DNA of 45,982 bases from a virus: the UHGV virus genome UHGV-0170246, one strand, 5' to 3'. Positions 5,646-29,154 of the stretch are shown here, in pieces. Position 1 is the first letter of the stretch. Every line of letters starts with the position of its first letter. A program made the position numbers and the translations under genes. The notes beneath the pieces were generated by a model. It was not told the origin of the DNA, searched no databases, and was given only the letters and a program-made list of their open reading frames with translations.

Positions 5646-6791
5646 TTATGGTCTGCTTTTCTGTGCCAGCTTATCAGCACATGTTTTTATCAGATCCTGT
5701 AGTGTCCTGGCTGGCAGGTTTGCATCCAGTACGCTGAGTATGCTGTTGTGTTCTGCTTGGTCGACTACTTTGCCTGTCGGTGGTAGTAGCTTGAGCTGAG
5801 GATTCAGGTTTTCGTCAAAGCTGATAAGTGCTCTGGCGTTTCTGAGCAGATCAAGAAGTAAGGCTGATATCACATTTTCCTGAGTCATTGCTGGCAGACT
5901 TAGCGCCGCTTTGGTTTTCCCTGTTGCCTTGTCAAACTCCTTGATTAGTTCCTTCCTGTAGTTCGGTTCCGTTAATAGCCGATTATGCTCTGTTGCCGCG
6001 CGGATAATCGTTTTTTCCTGGTATAGTCGTTTAGCCAGATCACGCTCGTACTGTGTTTTTAACACGCTGCTGATAGCGTTAAAGGCTTCAATGTAGGCCA
6101 GCTTGATATCTTTCACGCTTGGACCGTCGATGCTCTCCATGAGCAAGGTAAATCCGTCTTTTGTCATGCGATAGATTGTTATTTCGCGGTCGCTTCCTTC
6201 CAGCGGTCGTTGCTCTTTAAAGAAGTGACGCGCCGCAGCTGTGCGAGGAATGCGTAACGCATCGATGGCCATAACGATGGAATTGTTTGTGGTGCTGAAT
6301 GCCTGGGCAACATCGGCTGAGGTTGTGAGTGGCTCGTTGTTGCACACCTTAATGTAATACATTGGTTTAGCGTTGAGCGTATCGACAACCTCACGAGCAT
6401 TGTTTGGTGAGACGGTTACGGTCGCGGCCGTTTGCGCGTTCTGGTTGAAGTAGCAGTCTTCCAGCCGTTCGAATACATCCCACGCCTGATCGGTTTCGAG
6501 CATTTTAGCGTGACGTGCAGCCCCGCGTTCTGTCCAGAGGATGAGGGAGCGGACTTTAGGTGAAACTGGATTTTGAGAGTAGTTTAAAGCTACCCGCAAT
6601 TCTTTAAGGTCATTACCAACAACTTTGAAAAAGTGTTTCCCTTCAACGAAACGTGCTTTGTTCTCATGATGATTCTGGCGAATACGCACCGGCTCAGTGC
6701 CGTAAAGCTGTGCTAGTAACTCGGTAGTAATGACAGGGATTTGGTTATGCAGGATAGGCTGTAGGGTGTTAACGGTCGGAAGCGTTTTCAT
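5646..6791 (-). CDS. Antirepressor-like protein (ORF6N-type N-terminus, Rha-like central region)
   Basis: 381 aa; N-terminal pattern PVITTELLAQLYGTEPVRIRQNHHENKARFVEGKHFFK and internal TTSADVAQAF segment typical of phage Ant/Rha-type regulators (recalled domain patterns). Confidence 0.55.
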   Translation of the reverse strand: MKTLPTVNTLQPILHNQIPVITTELLAQLYGTEPVRIRQNHHENKARFVEGKHFFKVVGNDLKELRVALNYSQNPVSPKVRSLILWTERGAARHAKMLETDQAWDVFERLEDCYFNQNAQTAATVTVSPNNAREVVDTLNAKPMYYIKVCNNEPLTTSADVAQAFSTTNNSIVMAIDALRIPRTAAARHFFKEQRPLEGSDREITIYRMTKDGFTLLMESIDGPSVKDIKLAYIEAFNAISSVLKTQYERDLAKRLYQEKTIIRAATEHNRLLTEPNYRKELIKEFDKATGKTKAALSLPAMTQENVISALLLDLLRNARALISFDENLNPQLKLLPPTGKVVDQAEHNSILSVLDANLPARTLQDLIKTCADKLAQKSRP

Positions 6792-6979: not shown

Positions 6980-7394
6980 GGTGATAGTTCCCTTAAAGGT
7001 TAAGGATACTCACCACCGTCTGGTTCCAATCATTGGGTGGTGAGACGTACAGGGTTGGAACTACCGGTCACCATGGAATCCGGCGAGTCTTACGACTCCC
7101 CCGCACGCCCCACCATAATTTGGGTGTAGCAGTGCTTTACGCATAAAAAAACCGCTAACGCGGTATGCGCCATGATGATTATCGGGGTTCCAATCCCGAC
7201 CGTAGATTTTGCTACGGCTCGGAAAGTGTCCACCAATGGCGCATTTATGTCAATACAGAGGGATTTTAACAGAGACAACCACATAGCGTGGGTTTATTGG
7301 TAGGCAGAAACAAAAAAACCGCCCTATTGAGGACGGTTCTTTCGTGCTGATCGGATTCGCGGTCCTTTCAGCATAACGTCGTTGTACTAATACA

Positions 7395-7414: not shown

Positions 7415-7644
7415 AACTACATTCTTACCCAACTGAGGTGAATAGTCCACTATTCATATAAAAAAATTTAGCTCATTAGCTCATGCAAAATGAAGGTTTT
7501 TAACTTATTTACGTGTAATCTCATGTAATAAAAGCGTTTTTTATTCCTTCATTATGAAGGGTATGACGTGTAATATGGCTTGGGGCCTTTCCGCCGATTC
7601 GCACCCGGGCACTGACTTTCAGGAAAGGATTATCCACTTGCCGT

Positions 7645-7664
7645 ACCACGCAGGCACAAACAGC
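7645..7664. repeat. Direct repeat copy 2 (ACCACGCAGGCACAAACAGC)
   Basis: See copy 1. Confidence 0.6.
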
Positions 7665-7728
7665 GTGCTTGCTCTCGCGTCATTTTCGTCGGTGGGGATG
7701 CCGTGAAACGGCCTGTAAGGGCCACACA

Positions 7729-7851
7729 ATGAAAAAATACTACATGTGTATTTTTATCGTTGTTACTGGAGCTTTGTTTACGCCACATGGGGAGGGTTGG
7801 AAGATTACTGATAACGCTCTGAATGTGACGATAAACATTAGCAGCAAGTAG
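7729..7851 (+). CDS. Possible small hydrophobic peptide (40 aa)
   Basis: In-frame ATG of ORF 7669-7851; one predicted transmembrane stretch (YYMCIFIVVTGALF); followed at once by a strong terminator; no recognisable family. Confidence 0.2.
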   Translation: MKKYYMCIFIVVTGALFTPHGEGWKITDNALNVTINISSK

Positions 7852-7856
7852 CGATT

Positions 7857-7880
7857 AGGCCCCTTCGGGGGCCTTTTTTA
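7857..7880 (+). terminator. Rho-independent terminator
   Basis: 7-bp stem AGGCCCC/GGGGCCT with TTCG tetraloop followed by TTTTTT. Confidence 0.75.
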
Positions 7881-17566: not shown

Positions 17567-17908
17567 GCTGTAGTGAGAAGCCATGCGCTTACGAGCAGTA
17601 TTCAGATATTCAGAGCGGGTAATGAAGCACATACAACCGAAAACATGGCAGAAACTGGACTTTATGGGAGTTAAGTTGGAGAAGATTACTCAACTTAAGC
17701 AGTGGCATATTGGCGAATATTATGGAAGTCCTGGTCGGGATGTTCGTTTGGTAAAAAGTTGAGTATTGTTTTTTTATTGATCAATTAACCACAGAGTGAA
17801 GGTTTTTTTATGGGAAAGCCTTGTTTTAGGTGGTAACTGGGTGTAGTGTTTCATTTAACGTAGTAAAACTGCGTTAAGCGATTACCGCGTAATTTGTTGC
17901 TTTATGAA

Positions 17909-17939
17909 GCCCTGCCTTTTTCGGCGGGGCTTTTTTTTT
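17909..17939 (+). terminator. Rho-independent terminator just upstream of the lysis cassette
   Basis: 8-bp stem GCCCTGCC/GGCGGGGC (one G-U pair) followed by nine T. Confidence 0.7.
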
Positions 17940-19728: not shown

Positions 19729-19804
19729 GGCCCCTTAGCTCAGTGGTTAGAGCAGGCGACTCATAATCGCACGGTCATCGGTTCAAATCCGGTAGGGGCC
19801 ACCA
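19729..19804 (+). tRNA. tRNA with anticodon CAU (Met, or Ile2 if lysidine-modified)
   Basis: Hand-folded cloverleaf: 7-bp acceptor stem GGCCCCT/AGGGGCC, D arm, anticodon loop CTCATAA, T arm GGTTCAAATCC, encoded CCA; strongly resembles E. coli ileX as I recall it. Confidence 0.85.
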
Positions 19805-21279: not shown

Positions 21280-21302
21280 ACCGTAACGATAACGAACAAC
21301 GA

Positions 21303-21329
21303 GCCTCGGCAATTGCCGGGGCTTTTTTA
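21303..21329 (+). terminator. Rho-independent terminator
   Basis: Hairpin around the CCGGCAATTGCCGG palindrome followed by TTTTTT. Confidence 0.65.
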
Positions 21330-22167: not shown

Positions 22168-22216
22168 CTCTTACAGCCTCGCGGTGTCGCGGGGCTTTTT
22201 ATTTTCAGGTGATGTT

Positions 22217-22861: not shown

Positions 22862-23533
22862 ATGACAAAACATCTTAATGTGGTTTCTTTACCACTTTCT
22901 GTGTTGATTGGTTATGAAAAGAACGCTCGCACACACTCCGTGGAGCAGGTAGATCAGATTGTTGCCAGCATACAGGAGTACGGATGGACTAATCCGATCC
23001 TGATAGACGAGAACAACGTTGTAATTGCTGGTCATGGTCGAATTGTTGCGGCCACTCAGTTGGGGATGGATGACGTTCCCTGCATTGTTCTGGAAGGGCT
23101 AACGGAGAATCAGAAGAAGGCATATCGTCTGGCCGACAACCGTATTCCGCTGAATGCTGGTTGGGATGAAGAGTTGTTAAGCGCGGAACTTGCAGATCTT
23201 GCGGCCGATGATTTTGCTCTGGACTCAATTGGTTTTACTCAGCGCGAACTGGATAACTTATTGAGTGCGGCGGTCTACGATGACACAGAGGGTATGGATA
23301 TCCCATTTGAGAAGGATGAGGCCAAATCAGGCGTAAAAGTTCAGTACCTGTCATTTGGAGGTCATAAAATCCCAGCAACGGATGGGAAGCGGATCGTTTT
23401 GACTGCGCGGTATCTCGTTATGTTGATGATAATGGCAGCTATATCGGATTTGTATCCGCATTGCTGGCTGGGGAGGTGTGCTGATGCTTCATCTCAATTA
23501 CGACATAACGCACCTACGCGGCGCGGAATATAA
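22862..23533 (+). CDS. ParB-like nuclease domain protein (paralogue 1)
   Basis: 223 aa; ParB/Srx motif AGHGR; about 55% identical by eye to the protein at 26151-26741 over the N-terminal ~130 aa. Confidence 0.7.
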   Translation: MTKHLNVVSLPLSVLIGYEKNARTHSVEQVDQIVASIQEYGWTNPILIDENNVVIAGHGRIVAATQLGMDDVPCIVLEGLTENQKKAYRLADNRIPLNAGWDEELLSAELADLAADDFALDSIGFTQRELDNLLSAAVYDDTEGMDIPFEKDEAKSGVKVQYLSFGGHKIPATDGKRIVLTARYLVMLMIMAAISDLYPHCWLGRCADASSQLRHNAPTRRGI

Positions 23534-24857
23534 CCCGCGTTTTATCGGTGAGGATGATCTTGCGAGGCTGGCGGAAAGCGTCAGGGAGCTGGGGCTTGTG
23601 AAGCCATTGATAGTGCGCGGCGATTTGCTGGTGGCGGGACACCAAAGGACGAAGGCGCTACGTAAGTTGGGAATAACGCGTGCTGCGGTGTATGTGTTGC
23701 CCTGTGAAACGACGGTATACGACGAAGTACGGTTTAACCAACTGCATAACGGAACGGATTTTGACAGCGGAGATGAGCGTTGCAGGGTGTCAGGTCTGGA
23801 AGATAAGCATGGTTTTGTTCAGGTATCGGCAAGCCAGATCTCAGGCAATATGCGCGCGAAAATGGCATATGTTCGAAAGAACATAGCGGAACTGGTTATC
23901 AAGTATGGGCCGTGGGGTGGTTGTGTTGCTACTCAGTCTGGTGAGGTTATTCACTGTGCTCAGTATGCATTAGCAGCGAAGATGACGCGCACACCGCTAA
24001 CGGTGTTTGTGATCCCTGATGTTGAGAAGGAAAAATACCAAAGTTATCTGAATAAAACTTATGGTGTATTTGAGTATTCTCACCTGGAGAAAACAACATA
24101 CATCCAGACGTATGCGCAGCTTATGCGGTTGCGTAATGGTGGCAGCCTGAAATCAAACCTGTATGAGTCGTTGATCCTCCCGATCATTGCCAAGACGCCA
24201 AGAGGAATTGATTTTGGTTCGGGGCAGGGAGACTACGCGCGAATGCTCAGGGCAAAGGGATATAACCTGCATGATCTAGAGCTTTTCCGCCGTAAGGGCG
24301 CTGGAAACACTCTGGATAGGACTGCAACAAACCGGATGATTGATACGCTGGTGGACGACTTAAAAACGCGAGGGCGTTACGACTACGTGATTTGCGATAG
24401 CGTTTTGAACTCGGTCGATAGTGTCGAGGCTGAATGGTCCGTTCTAACGGTTCTGAAAGGCCTGTGTAAAGCTGGTGGGTCAATATTCTTTTCTGGTCGT
24501 AGCCGTGGAGAGCTGGAAACAGTCCTGAAGCAAACACAAGCGGCGAGTTCCAAAAGCCGGCTTTATTTTATTGATCATAACGGTTTTACCGCGTTGTACC
24601 GGAAGGGGCACTGGTTTTACCAGAAGTTTCACTCTGATGATGAAGTGAAGCAGTTGTGTCGTGTACATGGTTTCAGGATTAAGCGGTCAATATTCAACTG
24701 TAAGAGCTGGTATTTGCACGTCATTAACGATGATTCCCTTAGTTGGGCGAGTCTGGAGAAAGCTGTTCGTTTTGAGTTTGAGTTGCCGTTGCCTGGTGGT
24801 TCAACAATCGGACGATCTGATGATGTGCTGGCGGCTTTCCGGCCGTTGATTAAGTAG
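23484..24857 (+). CDS. ParB-like N-terminal domain fused to a class I SAM-dependent methyltransferase-like domain
   Basis: GGGAGG RBS before ATG 23484; N-terminus LLVAGHQRTKALRKLG is ParB-like; C-terminal region has motif I IDFGSGQG, acidic post-I, hhhhD (YDYVICD) and GG motif; no DPPY-type motif seen. Confidence 0.55.
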   Translation: MLHLNYDITHLRGAEYNPRFIGEDDLARLAESVRELGLVKPLIVRGDLLVAGHQRTKALRKLGITRAAVYVLPCETTVYDEVRFNQLHNGTDFDSGDERCRVSGLEDKHGFVQVSASQISGNMRAKMAYVRKNIAELVIKYGPWGGCVATQSGEVIHCAQYALAAKMTRTPLTVFVIPDVEKEKYQSYLNKTYGVFEYSHLEKTTYIQTYAQLMRLRNGGSLKSNLYESLILPIIAKTPRGIDFGSGQGDYARMLRAKGYNLHDLELFRRKGAGNTLDRTATNRMIDTLVDDLKTRGRYDYVICDSVLNSVDSVEAEWSVLTVLKGLCKAGGSIFFSGRSRGELETVLKQTQAASSKSRLYFIDHNGFTALYRKGHWFYQKFHSDDEVKQLCRVHGFRIKRSIFNCKSWYLHVINDDSLSWASLEKAVRFEFELPLPGGSTIGRSDDVLAAFRPLIK

Positions 24858-24873: not shown

Positions 24874-25593
24874 GTGGCTGACAGAATTGAGATAAAGATT
24901 GATTTTTCTTCTCAGGATATTCAACGACAACTCCAGCGCCTTGAAGAACGCGAATTGCCGTTCGCAATGGCGCTTGCGGCAACCAGAACGGCAAAGGCTT
25001 CTCAGGCTGCGATTAAGAATGAAATTAATCGGGTATTTGACAGGCCCACGCCGTGGATTCAGAACTCTACTTACGTTTTGGCCGCAAAGAAGAGTGATCC
25101 TACAGCCATTGTGTATGCTCGTGAATGGGGAGGAACGCCAGCCCCTGTAACGTTGACTCCGCAAATCGAAGGTGGCCAACGACAGTACAAACGCTCAGAA
25201 GGGGCGCTAAGGGCTGGTGGATATTTGCCTAACGGCTGGCAGCTTGCTCCTGGTCCCGGCGCAAAGCTGGACAAATACGGGAATATTTCGCGGGGGCAAT
25301 TACAGCAGGTCTTATCTGGCCTAAGAGTTCAGCGAGATGTGCATCAAAATCGCCGTCAGGGCAAGCCTACGGAGTTTTTTGTTGTTCGACCTGGTACAAG
25401 TAACCCGCTTCAACCAGGCGTCTGGCAGCGCGTTGGGCGGCGTCCTACGTTGATCCTTACGTTTATCCAGCAACCTAACTATTCGCAGCGTCTTGATTGG
25501 CATGGCGTGGCGCTGCGTGCTGGTGAGGATGCGTTTGCTGATGAAGTCACAAAGGCTATTGATGACATTCTTTCTAAGACCTTCTCTCGTTAA
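24874..25593 (+). CDS. Hypothetical protein (239 aa) between ParB-domain genes
   Basis: GTG start with AGGAGG RBS; family not recognised. Confidence 0.45.
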   Translation: MADRIEIKIDFSSQDIQRQLQRLEERELPFAMALAATRTAKASQAAIKNEINRVFDRPTPWIQNSTYVLAAKKSDPTAIVYAREWGGTPAPVTLTPQIEGGQRQYKRSEGALRAGGYLPNGWQLAPGPGAKLDKYGNISRGQLQQVLSGLRVQRDVHQNRRQGKPTEFFVVRPGTSNPLQPGVWQRVGRRPTLILTFIQQPNYSQRLDWHGVALRAGEDAFADEVTKAIDDILSKTFSR

Positions 25594-25599
25594 TCATCG

Positions 25600-26150
25600 T
25601 GTGGTTGATGGTGTTGTTATGCAGAGTGTATTCACTGTGTTCTGTAGTGTCGCTCGCTGGCTGTCTGTGGGGGAGCACGAGCATCGTTTCATCGTCCGGC
25701 AGAATTGGGTCCTTCTGGCCAAAAGCGTTGGATGCGGGTCATTCGAACCCCGATGTTCGGCTAGCTAAACGTGAAAAAAGTTAGGTTAAAAGTTTCGGTA
25801 AAAGAAATTTACTCATCTCATTGAAAAACATCGGGAAAACGTGATTTTTTGCTGTGCTTGTGATGGTGAAAAGAAAGTAGAGAATTTTCTTTTAGATCAT
25901 CAAGATACGCGCAGATCTTTAACCAATGTAAGGCTGTTTTGATAAAAATCGTTATAAATCATGCAAATACATCCAATCTTTTAACCAAAACACCATATCA
26001 AGATCCTTTTTACTTATAAAAACTTAATAAAATCAGATGATTATTCTGGTTTGTGTGATTTTTTATGAGTAAAAAGATCGTCATTTTTCTCTTTTAGTAT
26101 CAATAAGTTAAACAGTTTTCTTTAACCTGTTGTGTTATGGCGGTTAAAAA
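25600..26150. promoter_or_regulatory. ORF-free AT-rich intergenic region with three copies of (A)TCTTTAACC; candidate late promoter and/or packaging (cos/pac) region
   Basis: Repeats at about 25916-25930, 25973-25990 and 26113-26125; lies upstream of the ParB-like and terminase genes. Confidence 0.3.
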
Positions 26151-26741
26151 ATGGCTCTAAAAATCGAATATTTACCAGTCGGTAAGCTGCTCAGATACGC
26201 CAAAAATTCACGGACTCATTCAGATGAGCAAGTTGAACAGTTGGTGAACAGTATCCGTGAGTTCGGTTTCACTAATCCTGTGCTGATCGATGAAAAGAAT
26301 GAACTGATTGCGGGGCATGGGCGGCTTGCAGCAGCCGAAATTCTGGAAATGGATAAAGTTCCAGCGATTCGGTTGAGTAACCTTTCTGAAAAACAGAAGA
26401 AGGCTTACAGGATTGCAGATAACAAGCTGGCCTTAAATGCTGGCTGGGATATGCAGCTTCTGGCCGAAGAAGTCAAAGCGTTAATGGATGATGATTTTGA
26501 TATTGATCTGCTTGGGTTTAATGATGCAGAGCTTGACGAAATGTTAAGCGATGAACAGCCGCAGGAAGAAGACGATAATTCTTCCCCTGTTGTTCAAATT
26601 AAGTACCTGGCTATTGATAAAGAACGTATTCCCGCGACGGATATGGAAATTGCATTGTTGCTGGATGTTTATCGTCAGTACCACGACGCGCATGAAACGC
26701 ATGAGGGATTTGTTCAGTATCTTGCTAATGGTTGCAAGTAA
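26151..26741 (+). CDS. ParB-like nuclease domain protein (paralogue 2)
   Basis: 196 aa; AGHGR motif; paralogue of 22862-23533. Confidence 0.7.
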   Translation: MALKIEYLPVGKLLRYAKNSRTHSDEQVEQLVNSIREFGFTNPVLIDEKNELIAGHGRLAAAEILEMDKVPAIRLSNLSEKQKKAYRIADNKLALNAGWDMQLLAEEVKALMDDDFDIDLLGFNDAELDEMLSDEQPQEEDDNSSPVVQIKYLAIDKERIPATDMEIALLLDVYRQYHDAHETHEGFVQYLANGCK

Positions 26742-27292
26742 TGGCCATCGTCAGTAAGTCAGAGTTTGCCCGCCGAAAAGGTATTTCTCCGGCAATGGTT
26801 ACGAAGCTCTGTCGTTCCGGTCGCATTCCAGTGCTGAAAAGCGGCAAGCTGGATTTTGATAAAGCTAGTGCGGCTTATGAAGCGAGCCGACAGGTTGGTC
26901 GTGAGGTATCTGCTGAAAATGGAAAAAGAGGGCATGGGATATCTTCGGAACAACCAGAGTTACCCGCTGATGATGCCGGATTAGCTGGTGGTACTTCCGG
27001 TGTTGCGGTGCAATTCAACAAGGCTAAGACCGCAGAAAAAATTTATCAGGCAAAGCTGAAACGCCTTGAATTTGAAGAAAAGGAAGGCTCTCTCATCGCT
27101 AAAGATGCGGTCAGGGATGATGCATTTCTGGCAGCTAATGAATTGCGTAGCCGCTTATTTAGTATTGCTCCAAGAGCAGCTCCCCGTTGTGAAGGCAAAA
27201 CAGCCAGGGAGATCGAACGCATTATTGAAGACGAGATTAATTTTGCGCTTCAGGCGCTCCAGGAATCCCGATTTATTAAGCAGGAAGAATAA
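26741..27292 (+). CDS. Terminase small subunit (Nu1-like)
   Basis: ATG overlapping the upstream stop (TAATG); N-terminal HTH-like SKSEFARRKGISPAMVTK; immediately precedes the large subunit. Confidence 0.6.
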   Translation: MAIVSKSEFARRKGISPAMVTKLCRSGRIPVLKSGKLDFDKASAAYEASRQVGREVSAENGKRGHGISSEQPELPADDAGLAGGTSGVAVQFNKAKTAEKIYQAKLKRLEFEEKEGSLIAKDAVRDDAFLAANELRSRLFSIAPRAAPRCEGKTAREIERIIEDEINFALQALQESRFIKQEE

Positions 27293-27297
27293 ACCTC

Positions 27298-29154
27298 ATG
27301 GGCGAAACAGTATGGAGCACCGCTTTTTTCCGTGCGCTTCGCCCTAAATCACGGCTAACTGTTTCCGAATGGGCTGATAAGTATCGTCATGTAGCGCCGG
27401 GAACGTCTCCAGAGCCAGGGCCGTGGCGTACAAGCCGAGTGCCATATTTGCGTGAACCAATGGATGTTATTGGTGACGCTGATACAGAAACAGTAGTGAT
27501 GCAATGTAGCTCGCAAATTGGTAAATCCGAATTACAGCTAAATGTTATGGGTTACTTTGCAGATCAGGAGCCATCTCCTCAGTTGATGATTTATCCAACG
27601 GTAGAGGCGGCTGAGGCTTTTTCAAAAGAGCGTATTGATCCGACGTTCAAATATTCCCCTGGTTTGAAACACAAGCTGCATGAAGGGAAAGAGGGGCGCG
27701 GTGCAGCCAAAAAGTCCAGCACGACTATACGTATGAAGCATTACGCTGGTGGATATATAGCACTTGTTGGTGCTAATTCCCCAGCAGGTCTTGCATCCAG
27801 GCCAATTCGAATACTGTTAGCTGATGAGATTGATCGTTACGGTGTGACGCAGGAGGGCGACCCACTAAAACTAGGTATTCAGCGTACTACCAACTTTCAT
27901 AATCGTAAGAAAGTTTTTGTTTCTACTCCTGTTTTGGAGGAAACGAGCAAAATCCACAAGTGGTTTAAGCTCTCCGATCAGCGTTACTACCATGTTCCTT
28001 GCCCATGTTGTGGCACCATGCAGGTGATGAAATGGTCGCAAGTCAGATGGGATAAGAGCGATTCAGGTGAGGCGTTACCGGAAACGGCCAGATATGAGTG
28101 CTGTGAGTGCGGCGGGATTATGCGCGGATCTGGTAAACCAGACGTTGATTGGTTGGCGAAGGGGGTATGGATAGCTGAACATACTGGAATTAAAGGTATT
28201 GTTGGTTTTCATATTAACAGTCTTTACTCCCCGTGGGTTGCATTGTCAGAGCTGGTTGAAGAGTTTACGGAAGCAACCAGAAACCGCGATAAAAATGGAT
28301 TAATGGAGTTTATTAACCTTAAGCTGGGTGAGCCATGGAAAGAGGATGCTAAAGACGATATCGATCCTGAATACTTGTTGCAACGCAGAATAAGGTTTGA
28401 AGAGTTTTTACCAGATGATGTTTTATTGTTAAGTGCTGGTGTTGACGTACAGGACACGTATTTAGTTTGTGAATTGGTCGGTTGGGGAAAAGGTAAGGAG
28501 TCATGGGGGATAGAATATAAAATATTCCCAGGTGATCCCGCACAAGATGTTGTCTGGAAACAACTTGATGAATACTTACTCCGTAGCTGGTCATTCCGTG
28601 ACGGTAGAAAATTACAGATTTCTTCCGTTTGTATTGACTCTGGTGGGCATTTTACGACAGAGGTATATCGCTTTACTAAGCCGAGAGAATCAAGGCGAAT
28701 ATACTCTATCAGGGGGCGTGGTGGGGTAGGTTTACCATTTATAGGAAAGCCAAGTAATAATAACCGTGTGGGTGCTATGTTGTTTAATTTGGGGGTTGAT
28801 GATGGTAAAGGGACCATCATGGCAAGAATTAAACTACATGATCCTGGTCCTGGTTATATGCATTTCCCATTAGATTCTGACAGAGGATATGATACCGAAT
28901 ACTTTAAAGGATTATTATCAGAGAAAAAAATATTTGAATATAAAAATGGGCAGACAAAAGAAAAGTGGGTGAAAGTCTACGAGCGTAACGAGCCTCTTGA
29001 TTGCCGTAACTATGCAACTGCCGCGATGGAAATTCTGAACCCTAATTTTAACTGGCTTGCCGAACAGGAAATGCGAGGTAATGTGTATGTGCAGAACTCG
29101 TCAGGTATACGTAGAAGACGCCGTAGAGTTATAAGTAAAGGCGTAACCATATAG
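27298..29154 (+). CDS. Terminase large subunit (lambda GpA family)
   Basis: 618 aa; N-terminal GpA-like pattern with P-loop CSSQIGKSE. Confidence 0.85.
   Translation: MGETVWSTAFFRALRPKSRLTVSEWADKYRHVAPGTSPEPGPWRTSRVPYLREPMDVIGDADTETVVMQCSSQIGKSELQLNVMGYFADQEPSPQLMIYPTVEAAEAFSKERIDPTFKYSPGLKHKLHEGKEGRGAAKKSSTTIRMKHYAGGYIALVGANSPAGLASRPIRILLADEIDRYGVTQEGDPLKLGIQRTTNFHNRKKVFVSTPVLEETSKIHKWFKLSDQRYYHVPCPCCGTMQVMKWSQVRWDKSDSGEALPETARYECCECGGIMRGSGKPDVDWLAKGVWIAEHTGIKGIVGFHINSLYSPWVALSELVEEFTEATRNRDKNGLMEFINLKLGEPWKEDAKDDIDPEYLLQRRIRFEEFLPDDVLLLSAGVDVQDTYLVCELVGWGKGKESWGIEYKIFPGDPAQDVVWKQLDEYLLRSWSFRDGRKLQISSVCIDSGGHFTTEVYRFTKPRESRRIYSIRGRGGVGLPFIGKPSNNNRVGAMLFNLGVDDGKGTIMARIKLHDPGPGYMHFPLDSDRGYDTEYFKGLLSEKKIFEYKNGQTKEKWVKVYERNEPLDCRNYATAAMEILNPNFNWLAEQEMRGNVYVQNSSGIRRRRRRVISKGVTI

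Follow-up and report, generated by a model that had tools for sequence, protein, structure and literature searches.

The closest described counterparts of the locus reported here are the cos packaging sites of phages lambda and N15. In lambda, the 12-nt cohesive ends are preceded by cosQ, a highly conserved element of 7 bp (PMC4669245) that lies within the last 57 bp of the genome and is needed for termination (PMC4669245, PMC4856287), and are followed by a cosB of 120 bp with three sites (R3-I1-R2-R1). The nicking site of lambda, cosN, has two-fold symmetry at 10 of 16 bp, and the R3 site occupies bp 50–65 in lambda and bp 48–60 in N15 (PMC9026076). N15 is a plasmid prophage, maintained as a linear plasmid with a telomerase; it has near-lambda cohesive ends, cosQ at −30, one essential site (R3), a distal inverted copy of the site (rR2) and a small terminase gene, terS, that begins at bp 89. 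A locus of related architecture is described here in UHGV virus genome UHGV-0170246, whose sequence of 45,982 nt is referred to as the window and supplies all coordinates. The window represents an Escherichia coli phage-plasmid of roughly 48 kb with a lambda-type head and terminase module, and the 557 bp interval at 25594–26150 (+ strand), which separates the final gene of the right genome arm (24874–25593) from a ParB-like gene, is very probably its lambda-type cos site, consisting of cosQ, cosN and an unusually long cosB.

The ends of virion DNA were located through three phages plating on Yersinia pestis, vB_YpM_39, 41 and 44 (49 kb), which match the window at 97–98 % identity. The records of vB_YpM_39 and vB_YpM_41 start with GGTCATTCGAAC-CCCGATG (25737) and finish with ...GGATGCG (25736), while that of vB_YpM_44 starts with CCCGATG (25749) and finishes with ...GGATGCG-GGTCATTCGAAC, so that every record end falls at 25736|25737 or 25748|25749. 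Since two records have GGTCATTCGAAC on the left and one has it on the right, the 12-mer is read as a 12-nt cohesive end (25737–25748, + strand), the same length as in lambda. Arbitrary linearization of a circular sequence was considered as a source of these ends and does not explain a 12-mer that switches from one end of the record to the other. The corresponding cosN, taken with 2 flanking bp on each side, spans 25735–25750, with inferred nicks at 25736|25737 on the top strand and 25748|25749 on the bottom strand. Its columns were 94 % invariant in an alignment of five E. coli and Salmonella lineages, and a hand count found two-fold symmetry at 8 of 16 bp (GGnTC....GAnCC; 4 of 16 expected by chance). 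Of 36 matches to the 16-mer in IMG/VR, eight were due to chance, as their flanks showed no similarity.

Homologous ends were found in phages of Vibrio. R20L, XM1 and X29, together with phi 2, belong to the proposed 'Weiviridae' (PMC11432961), and cos is neither annotated nor discussed in those publications on these phages that were consulted. The linear record of R20L ends with ...GGGTCCTTCTGG-N18-GCG and starts with GGTGCTCGCGAC|CCCGCG; that of XM1 carries GGTGCTCGCGAC, the homologue of the 12-mer in the window, at both ends with one extra A; and that of X29 has 11 of the 12 bases of GGTGCTCGCGAC at its right end. Read coverage of X29 drops off at the genome ends, and this phage was explicitly contrasted with a permuted one (PMC5690320). 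Two Logan metagenome contigs of a further relative, with a small terminase (TerS) 41 % identical to that of the window, begin exactly at the equivalent of position 25737. The duplicated 12-mer of XM1 with its additional A is the pattern expected from fill-in and A-tailing of a 5′ overhang, given the presumed library preparation; the overhang may thus be a 5′ extension. The earlier note on this DNA, made without database searches, had offered the interval as a candidate cos site, and the ends of near-identical and of related virions do map within it rather than elsewhere. The note had emphasized the AT tracts and repeats of the interval, whereas the cut site and cosQ both lie in its GC-rich left part.

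The heptamer GGGTCCT occurs at 25707–25713 on the + strand (−30 to −24 from the left nick), the exact offset seen in lambda and N15. It is unique in the 46-kb window when both strands are searched, is 100 % invariant in the five E. coli and Salmonella lineages and is present at −30 to −24 in R20L and XM1; in X29 it stands 1 nt further upstream. The lambda heptamer, at bp 48,473–48,479, is presumably the cosQ of Wieczorek & Feiss (2001). In an ungapped alignment anchored on the nick, lambda reads GGGTCCTTTCCGGTGATCCGACAGGTTACG|GGGCGGCGACCT and the window reads GGGTCCTTCTGGCCAAAAGCGTTGGATGCG|GGTCATTCGAAC. The window has a CG just left of the nick, as does lambda, and this dinucleotide is highly conserved according to Feiss et al. 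(PMC4669245). On the other side of cosN, the spacer that leads to the first repeat (25749–25783, + strand), the counterpart of lambda I2, contains an A6 tract and GGCTAG at +23 to +28, counting from 25737 as +1; the CTA at +25 to +27 was invariant in 9 of 9 aligned cos regions, those of lambda and N15 included. Three more distant lineages, L050, L052 and L020 (TerS 55–57 % identical), have retained cosN, and cosQ too is retained in L050 and L020. L052, a Logan contig (ERR15948301, around position 1994), has a cohesive end that differs at position 10, GGTCATTCGTAC, and matches cosQ at only 5 of 7 positions (AGGTACT at −30), which shows that the wider group does not keep cosQ without exception.

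To the right of this spacer lies an array of short words with the pattern GGT(T/G)AAA(A)G. Three copies face forward on the + strand: F1, GGTTAAAAG at 25784–25792 (+48); F2, GGTAAAAG at 25797–25804 (+61); and F3, GGTGAAAAG at 25865–25873 (+129). The other three lie on the − strand and are given here as read on the + strand: R1, CTTTAACC at 25917–25924 (+181); R2, CTTTTAACC at 25978–25986 (+242); and R3, CTTTAACC at 26120–26127 (+384). F1 is 100 % invariant, and F1 and F2 coincide with the positions of R3 in lambda and in N15. As in lambda, both orientations are represented, and the presence of an inverted copy about 200 bp away is shared with N15. However, where lambda cosB has its three sites in 120 bp, the array in the window covers about 340 bp and has six to eight sites, three forward and then three reverse. 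R3 lies approximately 24–31 nt upstream of the ParB-like start codon. The triple repeat of the earlier note corresponds to R1, R2 and R3, so its words are the copies in reverse orientation within a family of six or more sites; two of them are exact copies of TCTTTAACC (25916 and 26119), whereas the third is TCTTTTAACC, with an extra T (25977).

Comparison between lineages provided an independent test of the array. In the five lineages of E. coli and Salmonella, 75 % of the columns at the six sites were invariant; the figure for the remainder of +69 to +414, without the IHF-like sites (see below), was 35 %. In L050, L052 and L020 the word is replaced by GTTAAC, which occurs at +49, +62, +129/130, +181/182, +242–245, +314–319 and +378/386, that is, at the places of F1, F2, F3, R1 and R2 among others, with the last copy as near to the ParB-like start codon as R3 is in the window. 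Nearly all GTTAAC hexamers of these sequences (4.3–6.6 kb each) fall in the array: 7 of 7 in L050, 8 of 9 in L052 and 6 of 6 in L020. Judged by their flanks, the first three copies have one orientation and the remainder the opposite one. Fixed positions combined with a co-varying word point to sites for a protein that has evolved along with them, and the repeat claim, weak on the sequence of the window alone, is rescued by these comparative data.

Two matches to the consensus of integration host factor (IHF) are interspersed with the repeats, as IHF-consensus sites are in lambda. Site 1, AATCAGATGATTA, lies at 26031–26043 (+295, + strand), and the consensus, WATCARNNNNTTR, is kept at +295/296 in five lineages while the NNNN spacer varies. 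Site 2, TATCAATAAGTTA, is a perfect match at 26098–26110 (+362, + strand), is present in four lineages and stands 8 nt upstream of R3. Two matches in 402 bp exceed the null expectation of 0.094 (P=0.004), and IHF would be expected to bind at these consensus sites. A third IHF-like site (+160), between the forward and reverse sets, is found in some lineages and is degenerate in the window. Site 1 is flanked by an imperfect 32-nt palindrome, 78 % complementary, at 26006–26076, whose arms are weaker copies of the word (CTTTTTAC at 26006–26013 and GTAAAAAG at 26069–26076). Conservation at the arm ends is 75–85 %, and the pair in the Salmonella relatives is CTTTTACCC/GGGTAAAAAG. A palindrome bracketing an IHF-like site recalls the R3-I1-R2 arrangement of lambda. 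The AT-rich 402 bp also contain four GATC sites (25895–26079), of which three abut repeat words (GATCTTTAACC, GATCCTTTTTAC and GTAAAAAGATC). The Salmonella relatives show the same association and the GTTAAC lineages do not; binding at the repeats may be subject to Dam methylation.

The terminase genes lie just downstream, as in lambda. TerS (26741–27292, + strand; phrog_57, E=7e-42) is followed by the large terminase, TerL (27298–29154, + strand), a member of the lambda gpA family (Pfam GpA_ATPase 7e-76, GpA_nuclease 1e-84) with 28 % identity to gpA itself (E=1e-62). The N-terminal domain of TerS is modelled by AF2 as a winged helix, with a predicted local distance difference test score of about 85. 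Its fold matches are winged helices of MerR type, including BldC, Xis and the DNA-binding domain of gpNu1 (1J9I), all at E>0.3; the match to 1J9I has a probability of 0.97 and a root-mean-square deviation of 2.2 Å over 54 columns (E=0.77). The TerS segment that aligns with the recognition helix of Nu1 reads SPAMVTKL in lineages with GGTTAAAAG and SRAA(I/V)TKL in those with GTTAACAAA; elsewhere it reads SHVWV(K/S)KL (Vibrio) and TVHWCGEL (L053, a relative discussed below). This pairing of helix and word fits TerS as the binder, without being decisive. The repeats are probably cosB-type docking sites for TerS.

A mechanism can be drawn by homology with lambda. TerL would nick concatemers at 25736|25737 on the top strand and 25748|25749 on the bottom strand, generating the 12-nt cohesive ends GGTCATTCGAAC, and GGGTCCT, 30 nt upstream, would act as cosQ, the stop signal at which packaging of the previous genome ends. 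A long cosB would follow in the AT-rich 400 bp, where GGT(T)AAA(A)G occurs six to eight times, with the three forward copies close to the cut, the three reverse copies more remote and the two IHF-consensus sites scattered among them. The winged-helix domain of TerS would dock on cosB, bend or loop the DNA and position TerL on cosN; TerS would then stay on the cosB end, starting translocation toward the terminase genes, the direction of packaging in lambda.

Several observations weigh against this reconstruction. The ends were placed through phages 97–98 % identical to the window and through more distant relatives, not through the element of the window itself, and the Yersinia phage records are flagged as circular. 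Assembly breaks were rejected as evidence for ends: many 24-kb isolate contigs have no break at cos, and L057 (Logan SRR1643076, a contig of 19.6 kb) stops 13 nt short of the inferred nick, on its left side. The cohesive end matches that of lambda at only 3 of 12 bases, which places the window outside the 'lambda-like phages' as narrowly defined by Feiss et al. 2015 (PMC4669245), although it shares their architecture. An unbiased 8-mer test in the spacer of the window was marginal (6 against 3.9±0.8 under a Markov null, with 9 of 300 shuffles as high), and 8-mer enrichment was not significant in lineages L046 and L019. The pattern matches 29 places in the window, six of them in the array, which makes up 0.9 % of its length; as the pattern was defined post hoc, the P-value for this clustering is not to be trusted. 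TerS has no match to Pfam Phage_Nu1, its sequence homology with Nu1 is weak (BLASTP E=0.41; hhalign probability 10 %, E=0.003), and the Foldseek E-values for its small domain are not significant. The correlation of helix and word follows phylogeny and so is not independent evidence. Lastly, a long array is present only where a ParB-like gene follows, and the ParB-like protein could therefore be the binder.

This last point leads to the most direct alternative for the array, in which cosN and cosQ are still the cut site and the repeats are bound by the downstream ParB-like protein as a parS-like loading or nucleation platform. We consider this unlikely, although several facts favour it. The gene, the first past cos, encodes 196 amino acids (26151–26741, + strand; ParB/Srx N-terminal domain, Pfam ParB_N E=4e-8; phrog_620), and its homologues, among the matches listed, were all at least 98 % identical. 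From E. coli to the Vibrio phages X29, XM1 and R20L, cos is followed by ParB-like, terS and terL in this order, the final repeat invariably stands a short way ahead of the ParB-like start codon, and ParB-family proteins classically bind repeat arrays. In L053, the sole relative that lacks the gene, a mere 83 nt with two different repeats separate cos from terS, yet these repeats show that repeats occur even without it. Moreover, the ParB-like protein has a ParB_N domain only, with no recognizable helix-turn-helix, the first sites are exactly at the TerS-binding positions of lambda and N15, and it is the TerS winged helix that resembles the DNA-binding domain of gpNu1. A bolder variant, in which the ParB/Srx protein is a third dedicated packaging component that loads on the GGT(T)AAA(A)G array like ParB on parS and helps to cut, hold or protect the cosB end, seems a little less likely again. 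A headful pac site, the other packaging function suggested in the earlier note, or repeats that are chance products of AT-rich sequence, is the least probable of the readings considered. Words like TCTTTAACC, with at most one mismatch, are indeed at chance level across the window (16 found, 12.5±3.4 expected), and the pac sites of SPP1 and P1, which have multiple small-terminase boxes or are under Dam regulation, likewise have several spaced protein-binding boxes at or beside the cut; overlap with GATC, a trait of P1 pac, is seen for some of the boxes in the E. coli and Salmonella lineages. However, those phages package by headful, with imprecise or serial cuts and terminal redundancy, whereas the records of three Yersinia and three Vibrio phages show fixed ends and unit-length genomes. 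Fixed ends and a GpA-type TerL argue against headful packaging, and the conserved positions and co-varying word of the array against chance.

The AT-rich part might also, or instead, be a late promoter or an operator of the operon of parB-like, terS, terL and head genes, with the repeats as sites for an activator or autoregulator; the chances of this are low, comparable to those of ParB-like binding. It is the lowest-GC stretch of the element, the first gene is closely preceded by an IHF-consensus site and a repeat at a conserved spacing of 8 nt, and activator-dependent promoters often lack a −35 element, so that a consensus scan can miss them. Nevertheless, the late promoter that had been proposed from the sequence found no support: 25300–26400 contains no sigma-70-like site (1.9 expected), the region has no TGT-N12-ACA of the P2/Ogr type, and clusters of the word occur nowhere else in the window, including upstream of other late operons. 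The first repeats, which take the place of lambda R3, are 370 bp from the gene. The flanking genes are co-directional, a scan of 25300–26400 for terminators was negative, and none stands ahead of the region apart from one weak match on the − strand. As all genes from about 10.7 to 44.5 kb point the same way, read-through from upstream, as in lambda, would suffice, and transcription across cos rather than from a local promoter seems the simplest reading. Strong terminator-like hairpins occur further upstream on the same strand, at 17906–17933 (20 nt before the holin gene), 21301–21324 and 22175–22196. Three hairpins in a co-directional late region suggest antitermination control; ahead of the lysis genes, no Q-like antiterminator was recognized. 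It is very improbable that the region is an origin of replication, whether lytic or plasmid. Iterons in two orientations, an AT-rich region for unwinding, IHF-consensus sites and four GATC in 402 bp, several abutting repeats, resemble the anatomy of iteron origins, but RepA and the sole perfect DnaA box of the window (TTATCCACA, 1989–1997) are 24 kb away, no DnaA box is found in 25749–26150 even with one mismatch, the GATC association is missing in the GTTAAC lineages, and virion ends map at the gap. Within 855–2100, RepA (855–1847) is followed by an AT-rich stretch that contains this DnaA box and is probably the plasmid origin.

The interval was confirmed as non-coding sequence upstream of the ParB-like and terminase genes. 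The preceding gene runs to 25593 and the first base of the ParB-like gene is 26151, and in an annotated relative, a plasmid of strain ATCC 25922, this is the largest gap between the lysis and tail genes, in agreement with its description as the longest stretch free of open reading frames (ORFs) in the late half. Two small ORFs within it (25599–25784, which contains the DNA-end site, and 25841–25942) are not conserved, since the Salmonella relatives have indels of 16, 4 and 16 nt, which are not multiples of 3. The description as AT-rich holds for the right 400 bp (25750–26150; 30 % GC), the lowest-GC 400 bp anywhere in the window (mean 44.7 %), and not for the left 156 bp (25594–25749; 53 % GC). 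Rfam and ARAGORN detected no RNA family or tRNA within the gap; the conserved block GGGTCATTCGAACCCCGA has a tRNA-like look, and that interpretation was discarded as both were empty there.

The element is widespread. A 1-kb stretch around cos had matches of 97–99 % identity in 72 complete E. coli genomes out of 5,426 searched; these amount to 73 places, of which 72 are on plasmids of ~47–50 kb, including one plasmid of the reference strain ATCC 25922. Salmonella, Yersinia and Klebsiella also carry relatives. The annotated plasmid of ATCC 25922 opens with the genes for RepA, ParA, a toxin-antitoxin system and immunity. Then come, all on a single strand, the lysis genes and a few small ones, two genes with ParB_N domains, a 239-amino-acid gene and the gap; past the gap lie the third ParB_N gene, the small and large terminases, portal, protease and capsid genes of lambda type and a contractile tail. 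In the window, profile matches identify the portal, W-like adaptor and protease as lambda-type, and gene direction is uniform from about 10.7 kb to 44.5 kb. Beyond the features already noted, the window differs from lambda in the ParB-like gene between cosB and terS, in a TerS outside Pfam Nu1, in its contractile tail and in its plasmid lifestyle. The Vibrio phages share GGGTCCT, a 12-nt end followed by CCCG, TCTAGCT at +23, repeats that begin at +50 (R20L and XM1; the equivalent position in X29) and the succession of ParB-like, TerS and TerL genes (TerL 63–66 % identical), and their linear records end at the homologous site. They differ in the cohesive end, GGTGCTCGCGAC, in having five direct GTTAACA(C/G)TT in ~90 bp and no reverse set, in a spacer before the ParB-like gene of only 152 bp, and in not being known as plasmids. 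R20L (L062) and XM1 (L066) have two further GTTAAC upstream of cosQ, at about −122 to −91 on the right-end side, and X29 has one; no counterpart of these words was seen in the window.

Other features of the surroundings were recorded. Three ParB_N-domain proteins bracket cos (22862–23533, 23478–24857 and 26151–26741), one of them fused to a methyltransferase domain. The 239-amino-acid protein encoded at 24874–25593 belongs to phrog_1924, labelled 'minor tail protein', and has no Pfam match; its gene is the last before cos in all four lineages examined (the window, L020, L050 and L052) and holds this place also in L020 and L050, two lineages without the ParB and methyltransferase genes upstream. 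A tRNA at 19729–19804, between the lysis genes and an MT-A70 methyltransferase gene, has the anticodon CAT and is assigned to Met by ARAGORN and to Ile in the annotation of the ATCC 25922 plasmid. Rfam matches to C4 antisense RNA (7033–7120, − strand), isrK (7145–7218, − strand) and ryfA (7581–7879, + strand) form a cluster that adjoins a 381-amino-acid ORF on the − strand (5646–6791) and resembles the immI antirepressor control region of P1/P7 type. None of the public records of the element that were inspected annotates cos, and no paper was found on vB_YpM_39/41/44, on R20L or on the cos of the E. coli element. Two published leads were set aside: the 'pseudolysogenic' Yersinia phage HQ103 is an unrelated 32-kb peduovirus, and the phage-plasmids of enterotoxigenic E. 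coli in PMC8085198 are of P1 and SSU5 type.

A cos site is an ordinary kind of element and is useful to annotate. As the packaging site for a widespread, unannotated family of phage-plasmids, this one orients genomes, allows virion DNA to be recognized in sequencing data and predicts transduction. Of some interest are the deep conservation of cosQ, the array of six to eight sites with natural specificity variants and the ParB-like gene between cosB and terS. The persistence of the cosQ heptamer and its 30-nt offset across terminases that are 28 % identical, with a cohesive end that is free to change, constrains models of termination in lambda. If the ParB/Srx protein does take part in packaging, the long cosB would be a ParB-type loading platform fused to cos, and enterobacterial phage-plasmids and Vibrio phages would share a conserved module of cos, ParB-like, TerS and TerL. 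The lineages that keep the positions of the repeats and swap the word (GGTTAAAAG, GTTAACAAA or GTTAACAST) along with a few residues of the TerS helix represent natural specificity swaps; if TerS reads the words, packaging would follow only from matched pairs, SPAM with GGTTAAAAG or SRAA with GGTTAACAAA.

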